From positions 337,716 through 401,715 of the forward strand of contig CAVQXL010000005.1 of assembly GCA_963717865.1 (NCBI GenBank): a DNA stretch of 64,000 nucleotides, written 5' to 3'. The notes beneath the pieces were generated by a model. The model saw only the letters and a list, made by a program, of their open reading frames with translations, made no database searches and was not told the origin of the DNA. The first letter of the stretch is position 1. The number at the start of each line of letters is the position of its first letter. Source of the stretch: Candidatus Aminicenantes bacterium. GTDB lineage: Bacteria; Acidobacteriota; Aminicenantia; Aminicenantales; Saccharicenantaceae. Below, piece after piece: positions 1,984 through 16,630 of the stretch. The position numbers were made by a program, and so were the translations under genes.

Positions 1984-2393
1984 GGGTCGAGACCTCCTTC
2001 GCTTCTATCCTTAACGCGAGTATAAGCGTTGCTCCCGATCCGTTCAACACGCCTTTCACCTGTCCAGGTGGCTGTGCAGGAAGGCCATCGTCTCGGCCCG
2101 GGACCGGCAGCCGCCGGATTCACGGTCTTTGATATCCGGCATGGCTCGACGTGGACGTCACGACGATAGTCCTCCCGGACGTCGGACATGAATTCAAGGG
2201 CCGGGATTGTTATGCCCGGCCTCTATGGCGCCGCCGCTCCCTGGGTAACGGCCCCGCCCCGAATCTTGACACAGTCTTGACGAATCCATGACAAGTCGTC
2301 GGCCCGGCCGCTTTATCCTTTGGCTGCAGCCAAGCATGGACATCGAGGAGATGAATTGTTATATGATACTCCTGTCTCGGGGGGAGGTTGGTC

Positions 2394-3410
2394 ATGGGTG
2401 CTACCGGTGTCGGCATCGTTTCCATGAGCTATCGGACGCCGGTTCGGGCGGTCTCGAGCGCCGAGCTCGAGGACAAGCTCGAGCTGGGGCGGGGGGTGAT
2501 CGAGCGTTTGACGGGGATCCGCAGCCGGCGCTGGCTGGGACCCGGCGAATCCCTTCAAGGCCTGGCTCTCGACTCCTGCCTCGAGGCCTTGGCCGCGGCG
2601 GGTCCGGACGGCATCGACAGCCTGATCTACTACTCGGACACGCCCCCGACGCGGCCCGAGGGAGGCGAGCATAAGCGGATCTACTATGATGTCTCGGCCC
2701 ATCTCCAGAACCTCCTGGCTGAATCGGGGATGCCGTTGGCCTGCGACTGCGTCGGCATCGCGGGGAGCTGCGTCTCCTTCCTGCTCTCCCTCCAGATGGC
2801 CGCCGGGCTTATCAAGTCGGGGATGAAGCGGCGGGTCCTGCTCGTGGGGGCGGCCTCGAACTCGCTTTTCCTGGAGGACACCGACAAGAACGTGTCCATG
2901 ACCTTCGGCGACGGCGCCGCCGCCTGCGTCCTGGGCGGAGAGGCGGAGATCGAGCTTCTGGGCGTGCACTGCAGGACCGACGGGAGGGGCTACGCGGCCG
3001 GCGGGTATCCCGACTACGCCTCGCTCTTCGTCGACCGCAAGAGAGTGGCCGAATTCGCCCCCCTCGGCCTCCAGGCGGGTTGGCACGGGCTTCTGGAGGC
3101 GACCGGACTACGTCCCGACGATATCGACGTCGTCATCCCTCATCAGGCCGGGATCAAGATCATCGAGCGCGGAATGGCGCTGGCGAACATTCCGGCCGAG
3201 AAAGTATTCCTCTGCCTGCACGATGTGGGGAACATCGGCGCGCCGGCGGTGCAGATGGCCCTGGCCCGGGCCGTTGAGGAGGGCCGCGTCCGGGACGGGG
3301 ACGTCGTGGCCCTGATCGCTTTCGGGACAGGCTGGAACTACGGAGGGGCGGCCCTGCGCTACCGGACCCGGCGGGGACGGGCGCGGGACGGATGGGAGAC
3401 GCGGCCATGA
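2394..3410 (+). CDS. 3-oxoacyl-ACP synthase III-like condensing enzyme (KAS III / FabH family)
   Basis: 338 aa with a GGGAGG RBS 5 nt upstream of ATG 2394. Catalytic triad context is visible: Cys in LACDCVGIAGSC, His in VIPHQAG, Asn in HDVGNIGAPAV. The C-terminal GTGWNYGGA is typical of the thiolase-fold KAS III family. Confidence 0.8.
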   Translation: MGATGVGIVSMSYRTPVRAVSSAELEDKLELGRGVIERLTGIRSRRWLGPGESLQGLALDSCLEALAAAGPDGIDSLIYYSDTPPTRPEGGEHKRIYYDVSAHLQNLLAESGMPLACDCVGIAGSCVSFLLSLQMAAGLIKSGMKRRVLLVGAASNSLFLEDTDKNVSMTFGDGAAACVLGGEAEIELLGVHCRTDGRGYAAGGYPDYASLFVDRKRVAEFAPLGLQAGWHGLLEATGLRPDDIDVVIPHQAGIKIIERGMALANIPAEKVFLCLHDVGNIGAPAVQMALARAVEEGRVRDGDVVALIAFGTGWNYGGAALRYRTRRGRARDGWETRP

Positions 3411-3438
3411 AGACCGCGCCGCCGCAGAGCTTTTCCGG

Positions 3439-4629
3439 ATGCCCTGGTCGGCCTCGGACAATGCCATGACCTGGCTCGAGCCGACCCGCAAGTGCAACAT
3501 CGCCTGCGACGCCTGCTTTGCCACGAACGATCCTCAAAGCGAGAAGCCGCTGGAGCGCATCCAGGCCGAGATCCGGTCGATGCGCCGCCTGCGCCGCTCC
3601 GACGGCATGTTCATCGCGGGCGGGGAGCCCTTGACCCATCCCCGGATCCTGGACATCGTCCGGCTCGTCCGGGCCAGCGACTATAAGCCCGTCCTCGTCA
3701 CGAACGGGGTCGGTCTGACTTCCGTCCGGGTGAAGGACCTGAAGCTGGCCGGCTTGTTCGGCTTCACTTTCCACGTCGATAGCCACCAAAACCGGCCCGG
3801 CTGGAAGGGGAGGGATGAGAAGGCCCTTAACGCCCTGCGGCAGGAGCTGGCCGACATGGTCCTCGAGGCCGGCGGGATGGTCTGCGGGTTCAACCTGACC
3901 GTCTTCCCCGATACCCTGGACCAGATGCCCGATGTCGTGGCCTGGGCTTTGCGCAACATCGACCGTGTCCAGTCCTACACTCTGACCGCCCTACGACAGG
4001 TCGACCCGGAGTTGCCGTTCGACGCTTATGTGGGCGGCCGGAAGCTCGACCTGGCCGGGACCGTCTACTTCTCGCCGGGGCCGCGGCGCAACCTGATGTC
4101 CGAGGACATCCTGGCCCAGGTCCGAAGGATCATGCCGGACTACCGCCCGAGCGCGTTCCTGGGGGGGACGGTCCGGCCGCACGCCCTGAAGCTGGCCATG
4201 GGCTCACGCATCGGAACGACCCGGGAGTCCTTCGGCAACCTGGGACCGAGAAGCATGGAGTTCCTACAGAGCGCCCATCACTGGCTGAAAGGGACGTACC
4301 TGGCCTTTCCCCGCCCCGGCTTCAGCCGGAAGGGCCGGTCCGCCTTCCTGTTCGCCGTTTTCGACGCCGAGGTCCGGCGGGCGCTGGGAGCCTACCTGCG
4401 CGCCGCGGCCCGCGCCCCCTGGATCCTCTTCCGCCGGGTCCACGTCCAGAGCCTCAACATCGAGCAGGCCTTCGACGTCCTGCCCAACGGCGAGCAGGAC
4501 CATTGCGACGGCTGCCCCAACAAGACCCTCTGGGGCGACCGGCTCGTCTCGGCCTGCGTCCTGGACGAGTACATCAAGTACGGGGCCCAGGCCGTGCTCG
4601 TGCCCAAGGCCCGGGCCGAGGGGTCTTGA
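3439..4629 (+). CDS. radical SAM enzyme, paralog 1 (HpnH-like organisation)
   Basis: CX3CX2C motif CNIACDAC at residues 19-26, [34 protein letters not shown], and C-terminal CDGCPNK...C cluster. 396 aa. Paralog of 6321..7517. Confidence 0.8.
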   Translation: MPWSASDNAMTWLEPTRKCNIACDACFATNDPQSEKPLERIQAEIRSMRRLRRSDGMFIAGGEPLTHPRILDIVRLVRASDYKPVLVTNGVGLTSVRVKDLKLAGLFGFTFHVDSHQNRPGWKGRDEKALNALRQELADMVLEAGGMVCGFNLTVFPDTLDQMPDVVAWALRNIDRVQSYTLTALRQVDPELPFDAYVGGRKLDLAGTVYFSPGPRRNLMSEDILAQVRRIMPDYRPSAFLGGTVRPHALKLAMGSRIGTTRESFGNLGPRSMEFLQSAHHWLKGTYLAFPRPGFSRKGRSAFLFAVFDAEVRRALGAYLRAAARAPWILFRRVHVQSLNIEQAFDVLPNGEQDHCDGCPNKTLWGDRLVSACVLDEYIKYGAQAVLVPKARAEGS

Positions 4630-4631
4630 TC

Positions 4632-5756
4632 ATGGGCGGCGCCGTCGAGATCCGTGAGGTCGGGACGAAGCGCGAGCTGCGGGCGTTCATCCGCCTGCCA
4701 TGGGCCCTGCATGCCGGCCACGACCGATGGGTGCCGCCCCTGCTGGCCGAGGAGCGGGCCTTCTTCCGGGCGCAGTCGAACCCCGCCTTCGCCTACTCCG
4801 ATACGCTTCTCCTGCTGGCCCGGCGCAACGGCGTCGCCGTCGGCCGCGTCATGGGCATCGTCAACCGCCGCTATAACGAAGCTAAGGGGGACAGCCAAGC
4901 CCGCTTCGCCTGTCTCGAGTGCGGCGACGACCTCGATCTCGTCCGGCGGCTTCTCGGCCGGGTGGAGGAGTGGGCCCGCGGTTTGGGTCTGCGGCGTCTG
5001 GTCGGCCCGCTCGGCTTCACCGACCAGGATCCGCAGGGCTTCTTGATGGACGGGTACGAGCACGAGCCCTCCATCGGGACCTACGTCAACCTTCCTTATA
5101 TGCCCCGCCTGATGGAAGCCCTGGGCTACGACAAGGAGATGGGATACGTCGTCTACCGGATCGACCTGCCGAGGCAGGTCCCCGAGTTCTACTGCAAGGT
5201 GGCGGAGCGGGCGGCCCTCAAGAGCGGCGTCCTCCTCCTCGACATCCGGCGCCGCCGCGAGCTCCGGCCGCACATCCGTCCGGTCCTGGTCCTGATGAAC
5301 GAATGTTTCCGAGAGCTCTACGGCTACTCCGTCCTCGATGATCGGGAGATGGAAGCGCTGGCCCGCCGCTTCCTCCCCGTCCTGGACCCCCGCTTCGTTA
5401 AGATCGCCGTGCGAGGCGGAGAAGTCGTGGGTTTCAACATCGCCATGCCGAACCTGGCCGAGGGCTTCCGCCGCGCCGACGGCCGGCTGTTGCCCCTGGG
5501 CTTCCTGAAGCTCCTCCGGGCCGGGCGCCGGACGCACCAGCTCGACACCCTTGTCGGGGGGGTCCGGGCCGATTTCCGGGGCAAGGGCATCGATGCGATG
5601 ATCGGCTGCGCGACCATGGCCGCGGCCATCGAGGCCGGGTTCGAGTTCGTCGACAGCCATCACGAGCTCGAATACAACCAGAAGGTCCGCAGCGAGATGG
5701 AGCGGCTGGGCGGCCGGATCTACAAGTCCTACCGCATCTTCCGCAAGGATTTGTGA
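4632..5756 (+). CDS. GNAT-fold (acyl-CoA N-acyltransferase-like) protein, 374 aa
   Basis: ATG 4632 lies 2 nt after the previous stop (TGATCATG). N-terminal IREVGTKRELRAFIRLPWALHAGHDRWVPPLL is typical of a large two-lobed GNAT-like family. The stop overlaps the next gene start. Confidence 0.5.
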   Translation: MGGAVEIREVGTKRELRAFIRLPWALHAGHDRWVPPLLAEERAFFRAQSNPAFAYSDTLLLLARRNGVAVGRVMGIVNRRYNEAKGDSQARFACLECGDDLDLVRRLLGRVEEWARGLGLRRLVGPLGFTDQDPQGFLMDGYEHEPSIGTYVNLPYMPRLMEALGYDKEMGYVVYRIDLPRQVPEFYCKVAERAALKSGVLLLDIRRRRELRPHIRPVLVLMNECFRELYGYSVLDDREMEALARRFLPVLDPRFVKIAVRGGEVVGFNIAMPNLAEGFRRADGRLLPLGFLKLLRAGRRTHQLDTLVGGVRADFRGKGIDAMIGCATMAAAIEAGFEFVDSHHELEYNQKVRSEMERLGGRIYKSYRIFRKDL

Positions 5757-5764
5757 GGAGGCCC

Positions 5765-6298
5765 ATGCGAGCCCGCTTCGATCGCTGGCTGATGGAACGG
5801 CCGCTGCGGGGCCCTGTGATCTTCCTGGGCCGCTGCGGCCTGCGGCCGAACGCGGTCACTGCGACCGGGCTGGCATTGGGCGCGGCGATCCCCGTGCTCC
5901 ACCAAGCCCGGCGATTCGGCTGGGTCGCCGCGGCCATGATCGTCCGGCAACTCCTGGACTGCCTGGACGGGGAGATCGCCCGCCGCTTCCGGCTCGAATC
6001 GCGGGCCGGCGCGGTCCTGGACTCCGTTTCCGACGGGTTCTTCTTCTTCGCCCTGGTCTGGCTCGCGGCGTCCCGCTTCTCCGGCCGGGTCGCCGTCGAC
6101 TTGGCCTTGACCGCGGGGGCGCTCGCGATCCTGGCCGCGATCCATGTCGCATTCTGCGGGCTCGCCGCGCTGACCGACCACTCGGTGAAAACCTACGACA
6201 CGCCGTCCCTCTACCGGAAGAGCTACGCCTTCCTGATCAGCAACAGCATGCTTTTCGTGCCCGCGCTCGCCGGGCTCTACCTGGGGTTCCCGGAATGA
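5765..6298 (+). CDS. CDP-alcohol phosphatidyltransferase family membrane protein (alternative GTG start 5753)
   Basis: Motif DGEIARRFRLESRAGAVLDSVSD fits D-G-x2-A-R-x8-G-x3-D-x3-D. The protein is hydrophobic, with GGAGG 3 nt before ATG 5765. Confidence 0.75.
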   Translation: MRARFDRWLMERPLRGPVIFLGRCGLRPNAVTATGLALGAAIPVLHQARRFGWVAAAMIVRQLLDCLDGEIARRFRLESRAGAVLDSVSDGFFFFALVWLAASRFSGRVAVDLALTAGALAILAAIHVAFCGLAALTDHSVKTYDTPSLYRKSYAFLISNSMLFVPALAGLYLGFPE

Positions 6299-6320
6299 GG
6301 ACCGCGATGGAGGACTCCCG

Positions 6321-7517
6321 TTGAGCATAGACCGCCGGCGACTCTATCGGTTTCCATGGTCCAAGACCGACAACCCGGGCGGCTGGGTGGACGTCACGGA
6401 CGTCTGCAACCTGCACTGCCCGCTCTGCTACCGGGTCTCCCGGGAGGGGCACCGCCTGCTGGGGGAGGTCCTGGCCGACGTCGACGCTTGCCGGGCCATG
6501 ACCAACTGCGACGACATGAAGATCGCCGGGGGCGAGCCCCTGACCTATCCGCACCTGCTCGACGTCGTCCGCCATATCGCCAACCGCGGGATGAAGCCGT
6601 TCCTGCTGACGAACGGCATGGGCCTCGACCGGGTGATGGTCCGGTCCCTGGCGGCGGCGGGGCTCTGCAAGTTCAATTTCCACGTCGATTCGGGTCAGAA
6701 CCGGCCGGGATGGGAGGGAAGGACCGAAGCGGAACTCAACGGGCTGCGGCAGTCCCTGGCCGACCTCGTGGCCGGGGTGCGCGGCCTTGGCTGCGGCTTC
6801 AACGTCACCGTCTCGCCCGCCAACCTGCCGGACCTCCCGGACGTCCTGGGTTGGGCCTTGCGCAACGTCCGGATCGTCCACCACATGACCTTGATCGCCT
6901 TACGCGGGATCGCTGTCGGCGACGACGTGGCCCTGTTCGCCAACGGTCGGCGCCTGCCGGACGGGCTTCTCCCCACGGCGGCCCCGGACGCCGGCTCGGT
7001 CGGACTGACGACGGACGATCTCCTGCAAAGCCTGCGCGGCCGCTACCCGTCCCTGGTTCCCTCGGCCTACCTCAACGGCGCGGCCTTCCCCGAGACCAAC
7101 AAGTACCTCGTCTCGGTGCTGATCGCCTCGCGGCGCGAGCTTTTCGGCTCGCTCGGCCCCAAGTCGATGGAGATCGTCCAGACGGCCATCCACCTCGTCC
7201 GCGGCCGCTACGCGGCCATCACCCGGCGGACCAAGGCGGGTCGGAAGACGTTCTTGCTGGCGGCCTTCGACGCGGAGGTCCGGCGTGCCCTGGGGCGATA
7301 CCTTCGTTCTGCCGTCCGCCGCCCGTGGCGCCTGCTCGACGGGATCTACATCCAGTCCATCGCCCTGGAGCAGCCCCTCGAGATCCTCGACGGCGAGGCC
7401 AACGTCTGCGACGACTGCATCAACATGATGATCCACCGCGGCCGCCTCATCCCGTCCTGCCGGTTGGAAGAATACCGGACGTTCGGCTCGGCCCTGACGT
7501 CCCAGAAGATCGTCTGA
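6321..7517 (+). CDS. radical SAM enzyme, paralog 2 (HpnH-like organisation), TTG start
   Basis: CX3CX2C motif [42 protein letters not shown], and C-terminal [18 protein letters not shown]. 398 aa. A GGAGGA RBS lies 6 nt before TTG 6321. Confidence 0.8.
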
Positions 7518-7665
7518 GCCGTCGGCTGTCGACCCAGGACGTCCGCAGGAGGCTCAGCTCCTTGTCGTCTTTCGCGGCGTTTGCCCGGAAAAACCCCGCT
7601 CTACCTCAAGGAGACGGAATTCCGATATAATCATCGCCGGTCAAGACCGTGTGAGGAGAGATCCC

Positions 7666-7800
7666 ATGAAAGACGTTATGATCGCGGGTGCCGTCCGAAC
7701 GGCCATAGGAAAATTCAATGGCACGCTATCGGGTACTCCGGCCGTCCGGCTGGGGGCTATAGCTATTAAAGAGGCTCTCAAGCGGCGAGGAACATCGCTT
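7666..7800 (+). pseudogene. acetyl-CoA acetyltransferase (thiolase) N-terminal stump
   Basis: [42 protein letters not shown] matches a thiolase N-terminus but the frame collapses after about 45 codons. A GAGGAG RBS is present. An unrelated C-terminal tail (..[34 protein letters not shown]) ends at 7922. Confidence 0.6.
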
Positions 7801-7953
7801 CCGTCGCGGGAGCGAAGGGCGACGTCCTCGAGGCGATCGTGGACAGAATGGTCAAAGAAAAGAACGTCCGATTGGAATATGCCCAGGAGCTCTTGAAGGA
7901 ATATTCCGGCAAGAAGTCCTGATGAGCGCGATCCGGATGAAAGGGGGACTCAA

Positions 7954-9193
7954 ATGCATTTAACGGAACAGGAAAAAGCGATCCTGGCGGGCGCGGAAGG
8001 GGAAGCCCCGAAGCTGGCCATGGAGATCCTGCAAAAGGTGGGAGAGATCAACGAGGCGGAGAGATTGATCCCGATCCAGAGCGTGCACCTTGTCCTGCAC
8101 GCCTACAAAAGCGCATTTGACGCGGGCGTCGACGCGGCCGTCAAGATCGCCGAGATGGGCGGCAAGTTCACCGTGCCCACCACGATCGACCCTTACGGGA
8201 TGGACGCCGAGGACTGGAAAGGGGCGAGGACCCCGGAACACTATGCCAAACAGCAGATCAGGCTGGATGAGGCCGTGTCGAAGATGGGCGTCCTGCCGGT
8301 TTGGACATGCACTCCTTATTACGGGTTCAACGTGCCGCGATTCGGAGACCATATCGCCTGGTCTGAATCGTCCGCCGTCGCCTATGCCAACACCGTGATC
8401 GGCGCGAGGACCAATAGGCAGACGGCCATCGTCGACATTTGCTGCGGCATCCTGGGGAAGGTCCCCGAGACCGGGTTGCACCTTCAGAAGAACCGTTACG
8501 GGGAAGTCCTGATCCGCTTCGATGTCGACAGGGAGCTCGAGTCATGGGAATTTCCGGCTCTCGGCTATCTCCTCGGCAAAAGGCTCGGCAGCCGGATCGG
8601 CGTCGTCCATGGAATGAAAGGCGCTCCGAAGCACGAGGCCCTCAAGTCTCTCTGCGCCGCGGCGGCCGCCGCCGGCTCCGTGACCCTGCTCCATATCGTC
8701 GGCGTGACGCCGGAGGCCAGGACGCTGGAAGAGGCGTTCGGGCCCAATAAGCCCGTCGAGGAATTCACGGGTCACGGCCGATGATCTGATGCAAACGCGC
8801 CATGATATGTGCACCTATAAAGGCGACAAGATCGATTTTGTCGCGCTGGGCTGTCCTCACTACACCATCAACGAGATCGTCAATGTCCACAATCTGCTCA
8901 AAGGGCGCAAGGTGAATCCCGGGACCCATTTCTGGATCTATGCCAATAGCTACGCTATCGACCTGGCGGAGCAAATGGGTCTGCGCAAGTCGCTGGAGGA
9001 AGCGGGCGTCGTCATCCGCGCGGAAACATGCATGATCATTTCGCCGATAGCCAATTGGGGCTTCAAAACGCTGATGACGGATTCGGGGAAGTGTTCCTAT
9101 TATGGCCCGGCGGAATGCGGCACGGAGATGATCTTCGCCGGCGTGGATGAATGCGTGGAAGCCGCCGTTTCGGGCAAGCTATCGAAATCGTAG
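7954..9193 (+). CDS. aconitase X catalytic subunit (AcnX large, DUF521), apparent frameshift at ~8780
   Basis: ORFs 7954..8784 and 8789..9193 are consecutive pieces (..PVEEFTGHGR / DLMQTRHDMCTYKGDKIDFVALGCPHYTINEI..). Together they are about 410 aa of AcnX/mevalonate-5-phosphate dehydratase-like sequence. Confidence 0.75.
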
Positions 9194-9208
9194 GACAGGG
9201 GTGGAGCT

Positions 9209-9628
9209 ATGAGAAAGATATCGGGGAGAGGCGTCATCGAAGGCACGGCCAAGGGGGAGGCGATCGTTTCGACCCAGCCTTTCGGCTTTTTCGGAGGCGT
9301 GGATCCGTCGACCGGACGGGTCATCGATAAACGCCACGAGCTTTATGGGCAGAACATCAAAGGGAAGATCATGGTATACCCTGAAGGCAGGGGCTCGACC
9401 GTGGGCGCCGCGGTGGTTCTGGAGCTGATGCGCACAGGCTGCGCTCCGGCGGCCATCATCAACGTGAAGATAGAGACCATTACCGCGGCCGGCGGCTTGA
9501 TGGCCAAGAAGTTCTACAACAAAGACATCCCCATGGTGGATCGCCTTTCCGAAGATCCGGTCAAGGCCATAAAGACCGGCGATATCGTCGAAGTGAACGG
9601 CACCACGGGAGAAGTGACCATTTATTGA
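9209..9628 (+). CDS. aconitase X swivel-domain subunit (AcnX small, DUF126)
   Basis: 139 aa (..GEAIVSTQPFGFFGGVDPSTGRVID..KIMVYPEGRGSTVGAAVVLEL..) immediately after the large subunit. Confidence 0.75.
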   Translation: MRKISGRGVIEGTAKGEAIVSTQPFGFFGGVDPSTGRVIDKRHELYGQNIKGKIMVYPEGRGSTVGAAVVLELMRTGCAPAAIINVKIETITAAGGLMAKKFYNKDIPMVDRLSEDPVKAIKTGDIVEVNGTTGEVTIY

Positions 9629-9708
9629 TTTCCCGCTATTCGATGGAGGTCTCATGAAAAGAAATATAGGCTTCGATATTCTCTGGGGATTCTTGCCTTC
9701 TGCTGCTT

Positions 9709-10311
9709 TTGCTGTTCTTGCTGAATCCGGCAGGGCTTAAGCTTTTTGTTTCGGCGACAAAAGCCCATCCGATCCTCATGGGATTCTCCAAGTTCTTTAT
9801 CCTGGCCTCCATGGGCGAGCTTCTGGCCATCCGGATCACAAGAAAGGCTTGGGCATTCAAGGGCATTCATCTTTTTAAAAAGGCCCTCGGCTGGGGTTTT
9901 CTGGGGATCCTCGTCACTTACGCCTTCCCGCTTTTCAACGCGGGCGTCAATGCCCTCGTCGAGGCGGGAATGCTCCCCGTTTTCAAAGAAGGGCTCAAGC
10001 GGACGATCCTGGTCGCCGTCTACAAATCGACGTTTTTCAATATCGTCTTCGGTTTCGAGTTCATGACCCTGCATAGGATCATGGATTCTTACATCAGTCG
10101 TCCCAGGCCGTTCCTCGAGATCTTCAAGGGCATCGATTGGGACAACATGTGGAAGGTCGTGGGCTTTTCCCTGCTCTGGTTCTGGATCCCGGCCCAGACC
10201 GTGACCTTTTCTTTCCCGCCGGAATTCAGGATCCTCATCGCCGCATTGCTTTCGATCTGTCTGGGCGTGATCCTGGCGCTCGCCAGGAGCCGGAGTCAGC
10301 AAACCTCCTGA
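9709..10311 (+). CDS. hypothetical integral membrane protein (lower-GC)
   Basis: 200 aa with multiple hydrophobic segments and no recognised family. The region is visibly more AT-rich than its flanks. Confidence 0.45.
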   Translation: MLFLLNPAGLKLFVSATKAHPILMGFSKFFILASMGELLAIRITRKAWAFKGIHLFKKALGWGFLGILVTYAFPLFNAGVNALVEAGMLPVFKEGLKRTILVAVYKSTFFNIVFGFEFMTLHRIMDSYISRPRPFLEIFKGIDWDNMWKVVGFSLLWFWIPAQTVTFSFPPEFRILIAALLSICLGVILALARSRSQQTS

Positions 10312-10336
10312 GCCGGCCCCGCAAGAAAGGCAGACA

Positions 10337-10561
10337 ATGCTCGAGGAATTGCTGCGGGACTATAATGAAGGCCGATCGATGAGCTTTTACTGCAAAGCCT
10401 GCGCGAGAATGCCTGTCGACCTGATCGACAGATCGATAAAAATGGCAAAGGAAAAATTGGCCTGTGAGAAAATGGATAGATCCGATCTGAGAACGAAGGC
10501 AAATCTTGTCAAAGCGATGATCAAAGATATCGCGCTTGGGGCCGGCGTTAGCTTGGATTGA
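10337..10561 (+). CDS. small hypothetical protein (74 aa, lower-GC)
   Basis: ORF only. Cys-x2-Cys (CKAC) near the N-terminus. No family recognised. Confidence 0.3.
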   Translation: MLEELLRDYNEGRSMSFYCKACARMPVDLIDRSIKMAKEKLACEKMDRSDLRTKANLVKAMIKDIALGAGVSLD

Positions 10562-10664
10562 AAGGAAGCGTCTTTTCTCGGCTTTGCCGGCGCCGGGATC
10601 AGGATCCCCTTAAGCGCATCGCTTCACTATCGATGTGATGCCGAAGCTCTGACGGGCTCCGGCA

Positions 10665-11588
10665 TTATTTCTTCGGAGGGACGCGGTCTCCTTTGGACGG
10701 GTCGGGCGGAAAGACGTCCTGGACCGCGAAGTCCACCCAGATCAGCGTCTCGGTGTTCGGCGTCGCGGCCAGGATGCGGTCGCCGATCTCCTTGACCGGG
10801 TCCTTCATCTGGCTCCACCAAGGCTTATCGGTCCGGTAGCCGTACTGGAACCCGACGGGCGCCGGGGCGAAGGTCTTGCCCCATTTGGCGAACTCGGCGA
10901 TCATGTCGTCCGACGACTTGAAGATCTGGCTGTCGTCGACGAACATGATGCCGTCGCGGACGGTCGGGGGCATGACGTCCTCGCGGAAGTGCTTCAGGAA
11001 CATGCGGTAGGAGGGGTTGTGGGACCGGGCTGCCGCCAGCCATGTCTTGGCCAGCTCATCGGTCACCGGGTCGCCGAGGTCGGGGTTATTGGAGCGGTGC
11101 CACTCGATGTCGACGCCGACCCCGATGACGCACTTATGGTGGCCGTAGCGGTCGAGCATAACATGGAAGGCCTTATCGACGGGCGCCCAGCCCGGCTCGG
11201 TCTGGAGCCAGACGCGGTAGCCGAGCTTGTCGAAGAGCTGGAGCACGGGCTCGCTGAGGTCTTCGGGCATCCCCGTGATGAGCGGGTCGCCGCCGGGAGG
11301 GACAGGGAACGACATCTCGGTGCCGCGGCCCTTCAGCCGGCTCACGATCCAGATGGCTTCCGGTTTCGCGCCGGGGAACTTGGCCGCGATCTCGGTTCCG
11401 GTGCGCGCCCAATACCCGGGGCCGGGGTCGTTCGGGCGGCCATAGGTCGAGCTTCGGATGCCCGCGCCCTGGAGCTTGTCGGTCCGTTCCGCCAGCAAGG
11501 ACCCGCAGATCGCCACGGCCATGAGGACCGTCAGCCCCGCCGCCATTACCGGCAGCGCCCCGCGCCCATTTGTCCGCATTAGGGTCAT
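10665..11588 (-). CDS. secreted hypothetical protein (possible TIM-barrel glycosidase-like)
   Basis: 307 aa with N-terminal signal/TM MTLMRTNGRGALPVMAAGLTVLMAVAICG. No confident family. Confidence 0.5.
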   Translation of the reverse strand: MTLMRTNGRGALPVMAAGLTVLMAVAICGSLLAERTDKLQGAGIRSSTYGRPNDPGPGYWARTGTEIAAKFPGAKPEAIWIVSRLKGRGTEMSFPVPPGGDPLITGMPEDLSEPVLQLFDKLGYRVWLQTEPGWAPVDKAFHVMLDRYGHHKCVIGVGVDIEWHRSNNPDLGDPVTDELAKTWLAAARSHNPSYRMFLKHFREDVMPPTVRDGIMFVDDSQIFKSSDDMIAEFAKWGKTFAPAPVGFQYGYRTDKPWWSQMKDPVKEIGDRILAATPNTETLIWVDFAVQDVFPPDPSKGDRVPPKK

Positions 11589-11779
11589 GTTATCCTCCCT
11601 CCGCGATCCGGTTCGATGAAATCAGGTTGATTCGACAATAGCATAGGAAAAGGCCGGGTTCAAGGTTCCGCTCAGTGCCATTGACGTTGCGAGCCGCCTT
11701 TCTCTATGATATTTTCAGGTCAACTTTTAAAGAAGATGAATTCCCGAAGGGCCCGCGAAAACAAAAGGAGGGTTGCTCT

Positions 11780-12400
11780 ATGGTCATAACCAACGTTGCC
11801 AGGAAGATCGAATATTTTCATGCCTCGAAGTATGGAAATGGAACCATGGTTGCGGAAGAGTTCAAGAAACAGATGGCCGCCAAGGGGGTCGCTGTCATCG
11901 TCCATCATGTCAGGGATGTGAGGCCAAAGGAATTTCATGCCTCGAAGTATGGAAACGGAGCCATGGTCGCGGAGGAGTTCAAGAAGCAGATGGCCGCCAA
12001 GGGGGTCACGGTCAACGTCCATCACATCCGGGATGCGAGGCCAAAGGAGATGCCGCCGGCCGACCTGTACCTGTTCAGCTCACCGGGGCGCATGGGCAAG
12101 CCCATCGGACGCATGCGCCGTTTCCTGAAGAAGGTCAAGCTGCCGTCGGGAACGAAGTACGCCATCCTGACCACCGAGGGCGCCCCTCGGCCGGACAAGA
12201 AGACCGGACGGATGCCCACCGAAGAGGAGCTGGCCAAGTGGCAGCGCGTCATCCCTATCATGAACGAAATACTGCAGGAAAAGGGCCTGGTCAAGGTCGC
12301 CGAGGGCAAGATCCTGGTGACCGGCCTCAAGGGGCCGCTGGAAGAGGGCTGGCAGAAGAAAGTGGAAGCCTTCGCATCCCAGATCCCCATCCTGCCTTAA
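11780..12400 (+). CDS. flavodoxin-like fold protein with internal in-frame 117-bp tandem duplication
   Basis: AAAAGGAGG RBS 7 nt before ATG 11780. KIEYFHASKYGNGTMVAEEFKKQMAAKG resembles the flavodoxin/WrbA N-terminus. A 39-aa segment is duplicated. Confidence 0.55.
   Translation: MVITNVARKIEYFHASKYGNGTMVAEEFKKQMAAKGVAVIVHHVRDVRPKEFHASKYGNGAMVAEEFKKQMAAKGVTVNVHHIRDARPKEMPPADLYLFSSPGRMGKPIGRMRRFLKKVKLPSGTKYAILTTEGAPRPDKKTGRMPTEEELAKWQRVIPIMNEILQEKGLVKVAEGKILVTGLKGPLEEGWQKKVEAFASQIPILP
11816..12049. repeat. 2 x 117-bp tandem direct repeat (~88% identical) inside flavodoxin-like CDS
   Basis: Unit 1 is 11816..11932 and unit 2 is 11933..12049. Both begin TTTCATGCCTCGAAGTATGGAAA. Confidence 0.85.
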
Positions 12401-12423
12401 TGCCCCGGCGGGTGAGGGCGATA

Positions 12424-13254
12424 ATGAACGGCAGAAAACTCATAGCAGGCATGTTTTTGATCGGGCTCTTGTCAGGGATCGCGCCCGCGTCCCCATGGGG
12501 CGAACCCGGCAGCGCCCTCCAGCCGGGTTATCATCTCGGGGGGAAGTATCTCTTGAACTTCGCCCCGGATTTCAAGAACATCGTCGTTTCCCCGTTCCAC
12601 TGGAAGGGGCGAGACGCGCTCCTATTCGGCGGCACCGCGGCGCTTACGGGTTTGCTGTATGCCTACGATGGGGACATCGGTCGATGGGTCCTGGACCATC
12701 GATCGCTCACGTCGAACGGCACGACCCGCTTCCTGACCCATCTCGCCGAGCCGCCGGCCATGCTGGGTCTGATCACGACGATGTACGCCACGGGCGAGGT
12801 CTTCGGCAAGCCGGGGCTGAGGCGAACGGCCCTGCTCAGCCTGGAAGCCTATGTCCTCCACTCCGCCACCAGCAGCTTCATAAAATTCATCACGGGGCGT
12901 TTGCGCTATGAAGCGGGCGAAGGTCCCCATTCCTTTCATCCATTCTCGATCGACTTCTCCAAGACATCTTTCCCTTCGGGCCATTCCGGCTCGATCTTCT
13001 CCGTGGCCGCGGTCATCGCCGGGGAAGCCGACAGCTGGGCCGTCGGCGCCCTGGCCTACGGCGTGGCGGGATTGGCGGCCATTTCGCGATTGCACGATAT
13101 GGACCATTGGGCCTCCGACATCCTGGCGGGGTCGGTCCTGGGTTTTTTCATCGGCAAAATGGTGCGGCATCTCAATCCGCACCGGGGGGCGGATTCTCCC
13201 GGCGCGGCGGGCGGGCGCGGGCCGGTCGGATTTTCCCTGTCGTTTCGATTCTGA
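12424..13254 (+). CDS. PAP2-family phosphatase (phosphatidic acid phosphatase type 2-like), alternative start 12400
   Basis: Signal-like N-terminus MNGRKLIAGMFLIGLLSGIAPASP. PAP2 motifs FPSGHSGS and SRLHDMDHWASDILAG. Confidence 0.75.
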   Translation: MNGRKLIAGMFLIGLLSGIAPASPWGEPGSALQPGYHLGGKYLLNFAPDFKNIVVSPFHWKGRDALLFGGTAALTGLLYAYDGDIGRWVLDHRSLTSNGTTRFLTHLAEPPAMLGLITTMYATGEVFGKPGLRRTALLSLEAYVLHSATSSFIKFITGRLRYEAGEGPHSFHPFSIDFSKTSFPSGHSGSIFSVAAVIAGEADSWAVGALAYGVAGLAAISRLHDMDHWASDILAGSVLGFFIGKMVRHLNPHRGADSPGAAGGRGPVGFSLSFRF

Positions 13255-14564: not shown

Positions 14565-15350
14565 ATGCATATTGTCGTCTGTATCAAGCAGGTTCCCAAC
14601 ACCACCAACGTCGAGATCGATCCCGGCACCGGGACGCTGAAACGGGAAGGGGTCGAATCCGTCATCAATCCGTTCGATGAATTTGCCATCGAAGAAGGCG
14701 TTCGTCTCAAAGAACGGACGGGAGGACGGGTGACCGTCATGACCATGGGCCCTCCCCAGGCGGAATCCGCGCTTCGGGAAGCTGTGGCCCGGGGCGCTGA
14801 CCGGGCGGTCCTGATCACGGACCGCGCCTTCGCCGGCGCGGATACGTGGGCGACATCCTATACCCTGGCCAGCGCCATAAGAGCGATAGGGGACTACGAC
14901 CTCGTCCTCTGCGGGAAACAAGCTTCGGACGGAGACACCGCACAGGTGGGCCCCGGTGTCGCGGAAATGCTCGACATCCCGCATGTGGCCTACGTTAAAA
15001 AAATAGAAGAGATCGGGCCCGAGAGCATCCGGGTGGAGCGGATGATGGAAGACGGTTACGACCTGATCGAAATGCCTCTGCCCGCCCTGATCACGGTGGT
15101 CAAGGAGATCAACTTCCCGCGCCTGCCGTCCCTGAAGGGAATGATGGCGGCCAGGAAGGCCGTTATCGAAAAATGGGACGCGGCCCGGATCGGGGCGGAG
15201 GCTCCGAACATAGGGCTCACGGGCTCTCCCACCCAGGTGATGAAGATATTCAATCCTCCGCCCCGGCAGGGTGGGGAAGCGCTTTCCGGTTCCGTCGAGG
15301 AAATGGCGGCAGGGCTTGTCGAGCGCCTGAAAAAAGCACAGATGATCTAG
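14565..15350 (+). CDS. etfB: electron transfer flavoprotein beta subunit
   Basis: MHIVVCIKQVPNTTNVEIDPGTGTLKREGVESVINPFDEFAIEEGVRLKE is a classic EtfB N-terminus. 261 aa. Confidence 0.9.
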   Translation: MHIVVCIKQVPNTTNVEIDPGTGTLKREGVESVINPFDEFAIEEGVRLKERTGGRVTVMTMGPPQAESALREAVARGADRAVLITDRAFAGADTWATSYTLASAIRAIGDYDLVLCGKQASDGDTAQVGPGVAEMLDIPHVAYVKKIEEIGPESIRVERMMEDGYDLIEMPLPALITVVKEINFPRLPSLKGMMAARKAVIEKWDAARIGAEAPNIGLTGSPTQVMKIFNPPPRQGGEALSGSVEEMAAGLVERLKKAQMI

Positions 15351-15388
15351 CGGGATACGAGGCTGTTCCAACGAAGGAGATAGGACCC

Positions 15389-16630
15389 ATGTCACATCGG
15401 ATCGAGGTCATTCCGGAAAAATGCAGCGGATGTCGCCTGTGCGTGCCTCAGTGTCCGTTCGGGGCCATCACCATGGCGGAACGTCCCGACCACCCCAGGA
15501 AATTCAAGCTGGCGGTGATCGATCTCCAGAAATGCACCTACTGCGGGGCCTGTGTCGACGCCTGTAAGAAGTTTTCCGCGATCCTGATCGTCAAAGATGA
15601 ACCGGTCCGTCTCGACATCGACCCTGCCCGCTACCGGGGGATCTGGGTTTACGCCGAACAGCGCCACGGGGAGATCTCTCCGGTCGCCTACGAGCTGTTG
15701 AACGAAGCCCGGCGCCTTGCGCGAAAGCTGGACGTCCCGTTGAGCGCTATCCTGATCGGGGACCGCATCGAAGCCAAGGCGCGCGATCTCATCCAGCACG
15801 GGGCGGACAAGGTCTATATCTATGACGACCCGATGTTCGTGGAGTTCCAGGATGACCCATACAGCGACGTCCTGTCCCATCTGATCGAGGAGGAAAAGCC
15901 CGAGATCGTCCTCATGGGAGCGACCAATATCGGGCGGTCGTTCGCCTCCCGCGTGGCTGCCAGGATCCGCACGGGCCTGACCGCGGACTGCACGGGACTC
16001 GAAGTCGACCCGGCGACGAGAAATCTGCTCCAGACCCGCCCCGCGTTCGGCGGCAATATCATGGCCACCATCCTGACTCCGCGCCACCGTCCCCAGATGG
16101 CCACGGTCCGCCACAAGGTGTTCAAACCGGCGCCTCGGGACGCATCGCGGACGGGTGAGATCATCAGGAAAAAGGTCGATCCTGCAGGGATCCGGAACCG
16201 GACCCGCTTCCTTGAATTCGTCAAGGACACGACCGCCCGCGTCAACCTGGCGGAAGCGGACATCATTTGCTCGGGCGGCAGGGGACTTGCCAGGCCGGAA
16301 GGATTCAAGCTCATCGAGGACCTTGCGGACTGCCTGGGAGGAGCGGTCGGGGCTTCGCGCGCCGCGGTGGACGAGGGCTGGATCCCCTACTCGCACCAGG
16401 TGGGACAGACAGGGCGGACGGTGAGCCCGAAGATCTATTTCGCCTGCGGTATTTCCGGACAGATCCAGCATCTGGTCGGCATGGGATCATCCGAGGTGAT
16501 CGTCGCGATCAATACGGACGCGGCCGCTCCGATGATGAAGATCGCCACCTACGCGCTGGAAGGCGACGTGTACGAGGTCGTCCCCTGGATCATCGCCAAG
16601 GTCAAAGCATTCAAGGGGCAGAGCGCCTGA
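15389..16630 (+). CDS. etfA: electron transfer flavoprotein alpha subunit with N-terminal 2x[4Fe-4S] ferredoxin domain
   Basis: AGGAG RBS. Two CxxCxxCxxxCP motifs (CSGCRLCVPQCP and CTYCGACVDACK) precede an EtfA body (..RTGLTADCTGLEVD..YFACGISGQIQHLVGM..). Confidence 0.9.
   Translation: MSHRIEVIPEKCSGCRLCVPQCPFGAITMAERPDHPRKFKLAVIDLQKCTYCGACVDACKKFSAILIVKDEPVRLDIDPARYRGIWVYAEQRHGEISPVAYELLNEARRLARKLDVPLSAILIGDRIEAKARDLIQHGADKVYIYDDPMFVEFQDDPYSDVLSHLIEEEKPEIVLMGATNIGRSFASRVAARIRTGLTADCTGLEVDPATRNLLQTRPAFGGNIMATILTPRHRPQMATVRHKVFKPAPRDASRTGEIIRKKVDPAGIRNRTRFLEFVKDTTARVNLAEADIICSGGRGLARPEGFKLIEDLADCLGGAVGASRAAVDEGWIPYSHQVGQTGRTVSPKIYFACGISGQIQHLVGMGSSEVIVAINTDAAAPMMKIATYALEGDVYEVVPWIIAKVKAFKGQSA

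Follow-up and report, generated by a model that had tools for sequence, protein, structure and literature searches.

To our knowledge, the radical-SAM enzymes known to modify lipids amount to a handful (Tes, Mss, Gms, GrsA/B, Cds and HpnH/J/P/R), and each of the earlier discoveries opened a class of membrane lipids, together with geochemical biomarkers, to genetic tracing. The Grs enzymes are B12-binding radical-SAM proteins. Mss, which is abundant in Bacillota and Thermotogota, is said to have been described by Sahonero-Canavesi in 2022 as a Tes-like enzyme with fatty-acyl lipid substrates in anaerobic bacteria, and its homologues are reportedly recognized at E ≤ 1e-50 and at least 30% identity (against WP_129545148.1 or Tmari_0825). 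We know of no radical-SAM enzyme in the known bacterial ceramide pathway. Tes (GDGT-MAS), the tetraether lipid synthase of archaea, has four domains, with a rubredoxin-like and an N-terminal [4Fe-4S] domain ahead of the radical-SAM core (PMC13459092). A remote kinship with Tes has been described for the radical-SAM protein Mss, whose anaerobic hosts include the FCB group, Chloroflexi and deltaproteobacteria (PMC13159169), and models of Mss reportedly share the catalytic architecture of Tes (PMC13274423). Gms combines a SPASM/twitch radical-SAM protein with COG4001 (PMC11214058).

The locus analyzed here lies in a stretch of 64,000 nucleotides from Candidatus Aminicenantes bacterium (contig CAVQXL010000005.1; hereafter the window), and comprises, in this order, genes for a KAS III-like condensing enzyme, the radical-SAM protein rSAM-A, a tandem GNAT, a CDP-alcohol phosphotransferase and a second radical-SAM protein, rSAM-B, with intergenic gaps of 2-28 nt (Table 1). 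The probable role of the two radical-SAM proteins is an oxygen-independent modification of an unusual membrane lipid.

Table 1. Features of the operon, in window coordinates.
Feature	Position	Strand	Basis
KAS III (FabH)-like condensing enzyme, encoded first in the operon	2394..3410	+	Pfam ACP_syn_III + ACP_syn_III_C
rSAM-A, A-clade paralogue, 396 aa	3439..4629	+	PF04055, clade A placement
Tandem-GNAT-fold N-acyltransferase (predicted), 374 aa	4632..5756	+	AF2 model + Foldseek
Small CDP-alcohol phosphotransferase, 181 aa, putative head-group transferase	5753..6298	+	PF01066 at 48 bits
rSAM-B, B-clade paralogue, 398 aa	6321..7517	+	PF04055, TTG start
Weak terminator-like hairpin after rSAM-B, possible operon end	7547..7572	+	Consensus scan; such sites no commoner than in shuffled sequence

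The reading frame of the KAS III-like gene is opened by a TTG at 2388, and the ATG at 2394 is preceded by a GGGGGGAGG run. Its translation shows the Cys-His-Asn motifs (GSCVSF, PHQAG and VGNIGA) and scored 154-160 bits against NCBIfam FabH models, under their cutoffs of 249-292; a gene of this kind occupies the equivalent position in L002, L003, L004, L085, L086 and L087. The GNAT protein gave no Pfam or NCBIfam match above threshold, its profile retrieved nothing from the PDB by sequence, and it was identified by fold search only: the best Foldseek matches of its AF2 model (pLDDT 89.7) were tandem GNATs (5kf1, 7q3a, 2wpw and MshD 1ozp), with E down to 5e-14. The CDP-alcohol phosphotransferase, whose translation carries a complete DxxDGxxAR(x8)GxxxDxxxD motif, best matched the NCBIfam archaetidylinositol-phosphate synthase (48.7 bits; cutoff 180), and was found in part of the clade only, being missing from L086 and L087. 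With regard to the gene starts, the rSAM-A orthologue of L002 (92% identical) begins at an ATGA that overlaps the stop codon of the preceding gene (MKTGASAELFRMPWS); in the window the same ATGA, at 3407, is shifted by one base relative to the rSAM-A reading frame, which therefore starts at the ATG at 3439, and its 5' end was probably shortened by this 1-nt offset. A further apparent frame offset lies at 8784-8789. rSAM-B (93% identical to P0001) starts at the TTG at 6321, with GGAGGA 5 nt upstream. Promoter and terminator scans of the window gave nothing better than shuffled sequence, and an Rfam search of the whole window returned three tRNAs only, with no riboswitch or other RNA upstream.

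Both radical-SAM reading frames were confirmed, and the two proteins are, as the earlier note had said, full-length paralogues flanking a co-directional operon. They were aligned by BLASTP with 167/384 identities (43%), 59% positives and 7 gaps (E 2e-106), above the 25% under which the shared blocks might be spurious, and every block quoted earlier was found in both (IAGGEPLT(H/Y)P, (V/L)TNG(V/M)GL, FxFHVDSxQNRPGWxGR, CGFN(L/V)TV, WALRN, a further block of 19 letters and CD(G/D)CxN). Among 122 family members GGEPL, HxD, RPGW and CDxCxN...C were near-invariant, while a shared block of ten letters turned out to be lineage-specific. The described pattern of divergence was also recovered, with 15-35% identity at rSAM-B residues ~196-260 and over the N-terminal ~60 residues and 45-75% elsewhere; the N-terminal divergence is real, but part of the difference is an annotation effect of the rSAM-A start. 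The term "tandem" did not hold, since two genes separate the copies and the duplication is ancient. Third-codon identity was near background, at ~50% even in the most similar block, and on this ground and that of the deep A and B clades of the tree a recent tandem duplication or gene conversion was rejected.

An NJ tree of 122 family members places rSAM-A in one deep clade (A) and rSAM-B in another (B), both within a single uncharacterised family of proteins of about 400 aa, with some 274 clusters when grouped at 50% identity. A+B pairs (L002-L004, L007, L011, L026, L028, L029, L031, L033, L037 and L040) recur in Aminicenantes, Gemmatimonadota and Ignavibacteriota, while Bacteroidales have arrays of 2-3 B-type copies, drawn from three B subclades in fixed order. 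The suggestion that the two copies act on different substrates or positions fits with A and B being distinct orthologous lineages co-retained in several phyla.

Membership of the radical-SAM superfamily was clear for both proteins (PF04055: 52.7 bits for rSAM-A and 46.4 bits for rSAM-B; cutoff 29.5). Family proteins are laid out as an N-terminal PWSxxDN segment, a CX3CX2C core with GGEPL, the SAM-binding motif of the radical-SAM core, and a C-terminal domain that is unique by sequence and carries an invariant CX2CX13C. The cluster motif reads CNIACDAC in rSAM-A (residues 19-26) and CNLHCPLC in rSAM-B (29-36), AGGEPL is present in both, and the C-terminal motif spans residues 356-373 and 363-380, respectively. 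In rSAM-B numbering, C29, C33 and C36 were kept in 122/122 family members and C363, C366 and C380 in 121/122, while C158 was found in 79% only. The C-terminal domain would presumably bind a second [4Fe-4S] cluster, with one site non-cysteine or open. The invariant residues of the family are for the most part polar or charged (D17, N18, H121, D123, R128, E136, R143, R195, K261, Q345 and Q351). Pfam detected Radical_SAM and Fer4_12 only in the two proteins, with no cobalamin-binding (B12) domain and no domain over the C-terminal half; SPASM (PF13186) was matched by neither, although a true SPASM enzyme in L087 was readily detected. By sequence score, no curated family claims either protein. Anti-phage viperin was rejected as an identity: PADLOC pVip scored 48-52 bits over the first ~100-150 of its 257 positions only, corresponding to the generic core, and NCBIfam viperin 39-44 bits against a cutoff of 180.

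In terms of predicted fold, the closest solved relative is Tes/GDGT-MAS, and not HpnH or MqnE. The AF2 model of rSAM-B (pLDDT 92, pTM 0.91) best matched Tes in a Foldseek search of the PDB (7tom/7tol; E 7e-13, TMq 0.60, ~450 columns, rmsd ~10 A, one predicted model), while BlsE, viperin, MoaA and other radical-SAM structures were aligned over the core only (TMq 0.36-0.43, ~250 columns). Tes was also the best hit of a sequence-profile search of the PDB (E 4e-14, core only), and the Tes NCBIfam model was matched by 73/73 family members with the best E-value; nevertheless, the two proteins scored only 43.6 and 36.6 bits against NF045702, whose cutoff is 450, again over the core only, which places them outside that family. 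A profile of the C-terminal domain matched neither Tes nor any other PDB chain by sequence. This lack of similarity, the missing N-terminal metal domains of Tes and the origin of the likeness in one predicted model at an rmsd of ~10 A weigh against a lipid-core target.

The most constant partner of the radical-SAM family is the GNAT, found at no more than 6 kb from the radical-SAM array in 25/34 multi-copy loci, and 33/34 such loci had at least one lipid-type neighbour. Outside the window, the rSAM+GNAT module is accompanied by alpha-oxoamine synthase (AOS), reductases, PAP2, sulfotransferases and lipid glycosyltransferases, with PAP2_3, SDR, OleD/HpnA-like reductase and saccharopine-DH-like genes among the cassette members. 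The AOS of L003 best matched the CFB-type serine palmitoyltransferase of NCBIfam (413 bits, under the cutoff of 640) and lies below every NCBIfam cutoff, so that "sphingolipid-like" is used here as a putative term. A GT2 lipid glycosyltransferase and a sulfotransferase adjoin rSAM-B in L003, L086 and L087; this GT2 corresponds to Pfam Glyco_transf_21, and its best NCBIfam matches are HpnB, at a distant 109 bits against 379, and CruG. Stand-alone GNAT homologues adjoin plsX-fabG-acpP-fabF or a ketosynthase. The lipid-biosynthetic context proposed earlier was thus borne out, by the KAS III-like and CDP-alcohol transferase genes in the window and by AOS, PAP2 and GT2 elsewhere. Two observations run counter to a lipid-core target: tblastn of the AOS, PAP2, sulfotransferase, saccharopine-DH-like, glycosyltransferase and other partner families gave no matches in the window, and Chloroflexi singletons lack obvious lipid neighbours, being paired with a gene of the nitroreductase family. 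Neighbourhoods in Chloroflexi and Desulfovibrionales were otherwise uninformative beyond a nitroreductase-family or glycosyltransferase partner. Literature searches for such a combination of genes returned nothing relevant.

Carriers of the family belong to Aminicenantes, Bacteroidales, Gemmatimonadota, Ignavibacteriota, Anaerolineae and Desulfovibrionales, from peat, fen and sediment, and include three cultured organisms (Leptolinea tardivitalis, Fundidesulfovibrio agrisoli and Carboxylicivirga marina). This distribution over anaerobic lineages fits an oxygen-independent route.

The reading that we favour, tentatively and at somewhat less than an even chance, is that rSAM-A and rSAM-B, at separate sites, carry out an O2-independent tailoring of the core of a polar, N-acylated (sphingolipid-like) lipid. 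Head-group enzymes vary next to an unchanging rSAM+GNAT pair, which points to the lipid core, rather than the head group, as the target. Three activities of the operon would together yield a polar membrane lipid: condensation (by a KAS III-like enzyme in the window and an alpha-oxoamine synthase in other phyla), N-acylation by the tandem GNAT, and head-group transfer (by the CDP-alcohol phosphotransferase in the window; elsewhere by a PAP2, sulfotransferase or lipid glycosyltransferase). The substrate scaffold would be an N-acylated, sphingolipid-like or aminolipid molecule. By analogy with Tes, SAM would be cleaved by the reduced cluster 1, the 5'-deoxyadenosyl radical would take a hydrogen from an unactivated lipid carbon, and the C-terminal cluster would capture or oxidise the substrate radical, yielding, independently of O2, either a desaturation or a C-C link (through cyclisation or cross-linking). 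The A and B enzymes may work at different positions or on successive intermediates. The paralogy, the limits of the family, its conserved cysteines, the Tes-like predicted fold and the gene neighbourhoods are shown by the data; from these we infer that a second cluster exists, that the substrate is a lipid, what kind of reaction takes place and how the labour is divided. Based on its Tes-like predicted fold, its own C-terminal cluster domain, its paralogue arrays and the reproducible link to GNAT, AOS and head-group enzymes, this compact and well-delimited family is a good candidate for an unrecognised O2-independent step in bacterial polar-lipid synthesis.

Among the alternatives, the best surviving, possible although unlikely, is that the substrate of the two enzymes is the polar portion of the molecule, or an activated and soluble precursor (e.g. 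a CDP-alcohol, NDP-sugar, inositol or amino-alcohol head), and that their chemistry resembles that of MoaA, viperin, BlsE, DesII or Cds/HpnJ; the CDP-alcohol transferase, PAP2 or glycosyltransferase would add the head group after its modification. The nearest structures after Tes are all nucleotide or nucleotide-sugar enzymes (BlsE, viperin, MoaA and DesII), yet they match the common core only (TMq ~0.4), whereas Tes is matched over the full length. The CX2CX13C spacing is that of the substrate-binding cluster motif of MoaA, whose second cluster binds the nucleotide; together with the many invariant Arg, Lys, Asp and His residues of the family, it could indicate a polar rather than a hydrocarbon site of attack. 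Moreover, in structure the GNAT comes closest to amino-sugar N-acetyltransferases and MshD, and head-group enzymes are common neighbours. Such enzymes, however, change from locus to locus next to a constant rSAM+GNAT pair, which would be unexpected if the radical-SAM proteins served one head group, and no nucleotidyltransferase or sugar-activating gene was seen in the cassettes.

A less probable alternative is that rSAM-A and rSAM-B are Mss-type membrane-spanning lipid synthases, joining the tails of two lipids, or of one, into diabolic-acid-like or macrocyclic lipids, with A and B differing in regiospecificity. The Tes-like predicted fold and a similar phyletic spread agree with this (Mss being compared here by description only). 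In the lineages in which Mss abounds, however, no genuine member of the family was seen: none of the 80 best genome loci came from Thermotogota, four were labelled "uncultured Eubacteriales", one of them neighbouring Aminicenantes in the tree with identical gene order, and 0/20 distant representative clusters looked up belonged to Bacillota or Thermotogota. Neither does the gene context agree, with no Ger/PlsA-type gene near the family loci and reported Mss partners that differ from those observed here (GNAT and AOS).

More speculative, and in our estimate doubtful, is a reading in which the family would be a minimal bacterial counterpart of Tes, forming C-C bonds in the N-acylated amino- or ceramide-like lipids of anaerobes, with each of the 1-3 paralogues making a different link (macrocycles, rings or tail-to-tail bridges). 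If true, cyclic or membrane-spanning "sphingoid" lipids would form a new class, and orphan sedimentary lipid biomarkers of peat and anoxic sediments could become accessible to genetics.

Maturation of a RiPP or other protein, where the radical-SAM enzymes would cross-link or modify a peptide acylated by the GNAT, is very improbable. RiPP clusters can hold arrays of paralogous radical-SAM genes, and weak NCBIfam matches to many SPASM-type peptide maturases were obtained; this identity was nonetheless rejected on the lack of a detectable SPASM or RRE domain and on the short intergenic gaps, which leave no room for a precursor gene, while no conserved short ORF adjoined the arrays across 80 loci and the neighbours are membrane-lipid genes (e.g. 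CDP-alcohol transferase, PAP2 and lipid glycosyltransferase). The least probable is the idea of the earlier note, an HpnH/MqnE-type addition of the 5'-deoxyadenosyl radical to a lipid double bond: apart from a generic core match of 36-37 bits and the HpnB-like GT2 adjoining the operon in L003, the resemblance found no support in TIGR03470 (36.7 and 35.9 bits against a cutoff of 225, over profile positions 31-174 only; 22/73 family members at E ≤ 1e-6), no Pfam domain covers the C-terminal half, no hpn gene occurs in the window cassette and no squalene/hopene genes in the cassettes examined (window, L002, L003, L086 and L087), so that curated scores and gene context rule out HpnH/MqnE membership and, judged by sequence, rSAM-A and rSAM-B are not the hopanoid enzyme HpnH.

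In comparison with known systems, the GDGT ring synthases GrsA/GrsB are likewise paralogous radical-SAM enzymes acting at different positions of the same lipid, a split of labour proposed here for rSAM-A and rSAM-B. The parallel drawn in the earlier note thus stands as an analogy of that kind but not as to enzyme type, since the Grs proteins, an unrelated subfamily, bind B12 and no B12 domain was detected here. MoaA, the GTP 3',8-cyclase, shares the core and the layout of an N-terminal CX3CX2C with a C-terminal CX2CX13C, but the two proteins scored only 27.8 and 39 bits against TIGR02666 (cutoff 284, core only), the TMq is ~0.41 and no molybdopterin context is present. The bacterial ceramide pathway (Spt, bCerS and CerR) resembles the cassettes of other phyla, where an AOS and a predicted N-acyltransferase are combined with NAD(P)-dependent reductases and with head-group enzymes of the PAP2_3 or GT21 type; it differs in that the cassette AOS falls under the Spt cutoff (413 vs 640) and, in the window, a KAS III-like gene replaces the AOS. 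Mss is set apart, by description, by its partner Ger, as against GNAT and AOS or KAS III. In Tes, as in the family, the radical-SAM core precedes a C-terminal domain, which has a three-cysteine cluster near the active site in Tes and three invariant cysteines here; a lipid-biosynthetic setting and anaerobic hosts are also common to both. Its two N-terminal metal domains are missing from rSAM-A and rSAM-B, where the CX3CX2C begins at residues 19 and 29, respectively, leaving no space for them, and its C-terminal domain has no sequence similarity to that of the family. Finally, the family hosts are bacteria and its partner genes are those of acyl and N-acyl lipids, whereas Tes is linked to isoprenoid ethers.

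The two radical-SAM paralogues were found, as the earlier note had claimed, to bracket an operon of five tightly spaced genes on the + strand (approximately 2394 to 7517), which either overlap or are separated by gaps of 2-28 nt. Genes for an alpha-oxoamine synthase (AOS), PAP2, sulfotransferase and glycosyltransferase were all sought in the window, and none was found.

Genes of the five-gene operon and features located downstream of it in the window
Feature	Position	Strand	Remarks
KAS III (FabH)-like condensing enzyme	2394-3410	+	
rSAM-A	3439-4629	+	396 aa
374-aa protein	4632-5756	+	no Pfam or NCBIfam match
CDP-alcohol phosphotransferase	5753-6298	+	181 aa; complete DxxDGxxAR(x8)GxxxDxxxD motif
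rSAM-B	6321-7517	+	398 aa
81-aa ORF	7651-7896		
Aconitase-X (AcnX) genes	7786-9620		large subunit split at 8784/8789; swivel subunit 9209-9628
307-aa protein	10665-11588	-	N-terminal signal-like hydrophobic segment; no Pfam match
Flavodoxin-domain protein and ETF alpha/beta pair	11675-12400 and 14565-16630		ETF alpha subunit fused to a ferredoxin domain

Both radical-SAM proteins were paralogous over their full length (43% identity across 384 residues, E 2e-106), and every shared block quoted in the earlier note was present, as were the divergent stretches, where identity was 15-35% (the N-terminal ~60 residues and residues ~196-260 of rSAM-B). The proposed tandem duplication had to be abandoned: the deepest split of a neighbour-joining tree built from 122 family members separated the two proteins (A and B clades), and their third-codon identity was at background, the duplication being neither tandem nor recent. 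The N-terminal difference is partly an artefact. In L002, the locus of a 92%-identical rSAM-A orthologue, rSAM-A starts at an ATGA overlapping the KAS III stop (MKTGASAELFRMPWS); the same ATGA occurs in the window at 3407, one base out of frame, so that the ORF opens at ATG 3439, and the conserved N-terminal ELFRMPWS is readable 5' of this annotated start (3407-3441). Either the gene is genuinely truncated at its 5' end or the assembly is wrong by one base here. Alignment of positions 7415-13154 of the near-identical contig L085 with 2022-7785 of the window (98.96% identity) contained 28 single-base gaps over 5.8 kb, suggesting that assembly indel errors are likely in one or other sequence, and rSAM-B was broken into two ORFs in L085. 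The gap pattern is typical of long-read indel errors, and frameshifts in either sequence need caution.

The AcnX genes were missing from L085, pointing to a strain-level indel; AcnX was also detected near the operon in the related locus L003. The 81-aa ORF matched only the first 39 residues of a thiolase N-terminal domain, and resembles the remnant of a gene, situated between the AcnX genes and the lipid operon. Homologues of the 307-aa protein occurred in L002, immediately downstream of the rSAM genes, and close to these genes in another locus (L001). The flavodoxin-domain protein and the ETF pair, within 8 kb downstream, are possible low-potential electron donors for the radical-SAM enzymes.

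What had been described as one unusual signature resolved into two separate components, family-wide motifs (PWSxxDN, GGEPL, HxD, RPGW and CDxCxN...C) and a lineage-specific helix (window 7245-7331, residues 309-337 of rSAM-B, and the matching part of rSAM-A). In this helix, identity between A and B was 69% in the window and 66% in L002 but fell to 31-45% in other genomes; B orthologues were 41% identical to one another. There was no sign of recent gene conversion in the helix, synonymous sites not being homogenised, which suggests lineage-specific co-evolution of A and B, possibly through an A-B contact, a shared interface or a surface for a common partner.

Pfam covered only the radical-SAM core (first ~170 residues), and no NCBIfam equivalog came near its cutoff for either paralogue, with scores of 36-37 vs. 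225 for adenosylhopane synthase (HpnH), 37-44 vs. 450 for archaeal tetraether synthase (Tes) and 28-39 vs. 284 for MoaA. Among 73 members, the Tes model was matched by all and with the best E-value, while HpnH was matched by only 22, against the resemblance to HpnH suggested in the earlier note. Searching 1.84 billion cluster representatives with a profile recovered only 274 at E<=1e-30; the family is small and sharply delimited. The CX3CX2C triad cysteines were present in 122 of 122 members and the C-terminal CX2CX13C in 121, whereas a fourth cysteine (C158) occurred in 79%. The best solved-structure match of the rSAM-B AlphaFold model (pLDDT 92, pTM 0.91) was Tes/GDGT-MAS (E 7e-13, TMq 0.60, ~450 columns), while BlsE, viperin, MoaA and all other structures aligned in the core only (TMq 0.36-0.43). 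By sequence profile against the PDB, Tes was again best, limited to the core, and the C-terminal domain alone had no match.

The genome scan yielded 79 loci among the matches listed, from Aminicenantes, uncultured Bacteroidales, Gemmatimonadota, Ignavibacteriota, Zixibacteria, Anaerolineae (cultured carrier, Leptolinea tardivitalis) and Desulfovibrionales (Fundidesulfovibrio agrisoli); Carboxylicivirga marina also had one member. ORFs called in 85 loci were clustered; 34 of these loci contained more than one family member (two or three), with the 374-aa protein within 6 kb in 25 and at least one lipid-type neighbour in 33. The lipid setting proposed earlier stands. Pairs of A and B were repeated in Aminicenantes, Gemmatimonadota and Ignavibacteriota; Bacteroidales carried two or three B-type subclades in fixed order, and singletons of Chloroflexi, Ignavibacteria and Desulfovibrionales belonged to the A side of the 122-member tree. 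In 16 loci from Chloroflexi (L041-L065) and Zixibacteria (L045), a single-copy member was directly followed by a nitroreductase-family gene, with no obvious lipid genes nearby, which makes this a partnership of another kind.

The 374-aa protein was modelled as a tandem GNAT fold (pLDDT 89.7), with glucosamine N-acetyltransferase, MAB_4324, clavulanate tandem GNAT and MshD as top Foldseek matches, and is thus predicted to be an N-acyl or N-acetyl transferase; its stand-alone homologues adjoin plsX-fabG-acpP-fabF or a ketosynthase. The core order in the window clade was KAS III-like, rSAM-A, GNAT, rSAM-B (L086 and L087), with a CDP-alcohol transferase inserted in the window, L002, L003, L004 and L085. 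Recurrent neighbours of the module included AOS, upstream of the core in L003 (best NCBIfam CFB-type serine palmitoyltransferase, 413 bits, below the cutoff of 640, followed closely by BioF and Kbl), a saccharopine-dehydrogenase-like protein, SDRs, an OleD/HpnA-like reductase, PAP2_3 proteins, two sulfotransferase families and a B12 radical-SAM enzyme. A further recurrent neighbour was a second radical-SAM enzyme accompanied by a 557-aa protein; this pair was found beside rSAM arrays in five loci (L014, L017, L024, L029 and L040), always comprising an unrelated radical-SAM protein (~404 aa; MoaA/AhbD-like core, 120-aa N-terminal extension) and a ~557-aa partner with no family match. A sulfotransferase and a GT2 lipid glycosyltransferase (Pfam Glyco_transf_21, GT21-type; best NCBIfam HpnB and CruG) were convergent to rSAM-B in L003 (9260-11474), L086 (11212-13402) and L087 (11306-13493), a hint that the final product of these lineages is a sulfated glycolipid.

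The constant unit was a condensing enzyme, the GNAT and at least one rSAM gene, while head-group enzymes varied by lineage (CDP-alcohol transferase, PAP2, glycosyltransferase, sulfotransferase). This fits a pathway to an N-acylated lipid core, sphingolipid-like or aminolipid, that lineages would decorate differently, and it is on this core that the radical-SAM enzymes would then act. Given this placement, a fold like that of Tes, a second site with three Cys residues and hosts that are anaerobic, we tentatively propose, at somewhat below even confidence, an O2-independent C-H activation of the lipid. The role of the C-terminal cluster would be to capture or oxidise the radical formed on the substrate, leading to C-C bond formation or desaturation. 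The two copies would serve different positions or intermediates, in keeping with the earlier idea of sub-functionalisation. Beyond paralogy, fold and neighbourhood, all of this we infer. An action on a head-group precursor, either polar or nucleotide-activated, would agree with the MoaA-like CX2CX13C spacing, the numerous invariant charged residues and structural neighbours that act on nucleotides, yet it is unlikely, as head-group enzymes are the variable part and nucleotide-acting structures match in the core only. Genuine tail coupling as by bacterial membrane-spanning lipid synthase (Mss), described as Tes-like and common across anaerobes (PMC13159169, PMC13274423), is rather improbable, no genuine Bacillota or Thermotogota member being present among the best 80 loci and 20 named representatives. 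A RiPP maturase is very improbable, HpnH-like adenosylation has a slighter chance still, and that of a prokaryotic viperin is close to nil.

Full-text literature searches turned up nothing relevant to this gene combination, and no such enzyme is among those covered by a 2026 review (PMC13459092) devoted to radical-SAM enzymes that act on lipids. We regard the proteins as a separate radical-SAM family, Tes-like and linked to genes for N-acyl lipids. Four metal-binding domains are described for Tes, and its C-terminal cluster, with three Cys ligands and one Met, is the proposed captor of the first substrate radical (PMC13459092). Compared with Tes, rSAM-A and rSAM-B retain the core and the three-Cys C-terminal domain but have neither of the two N-terminal metal domains.
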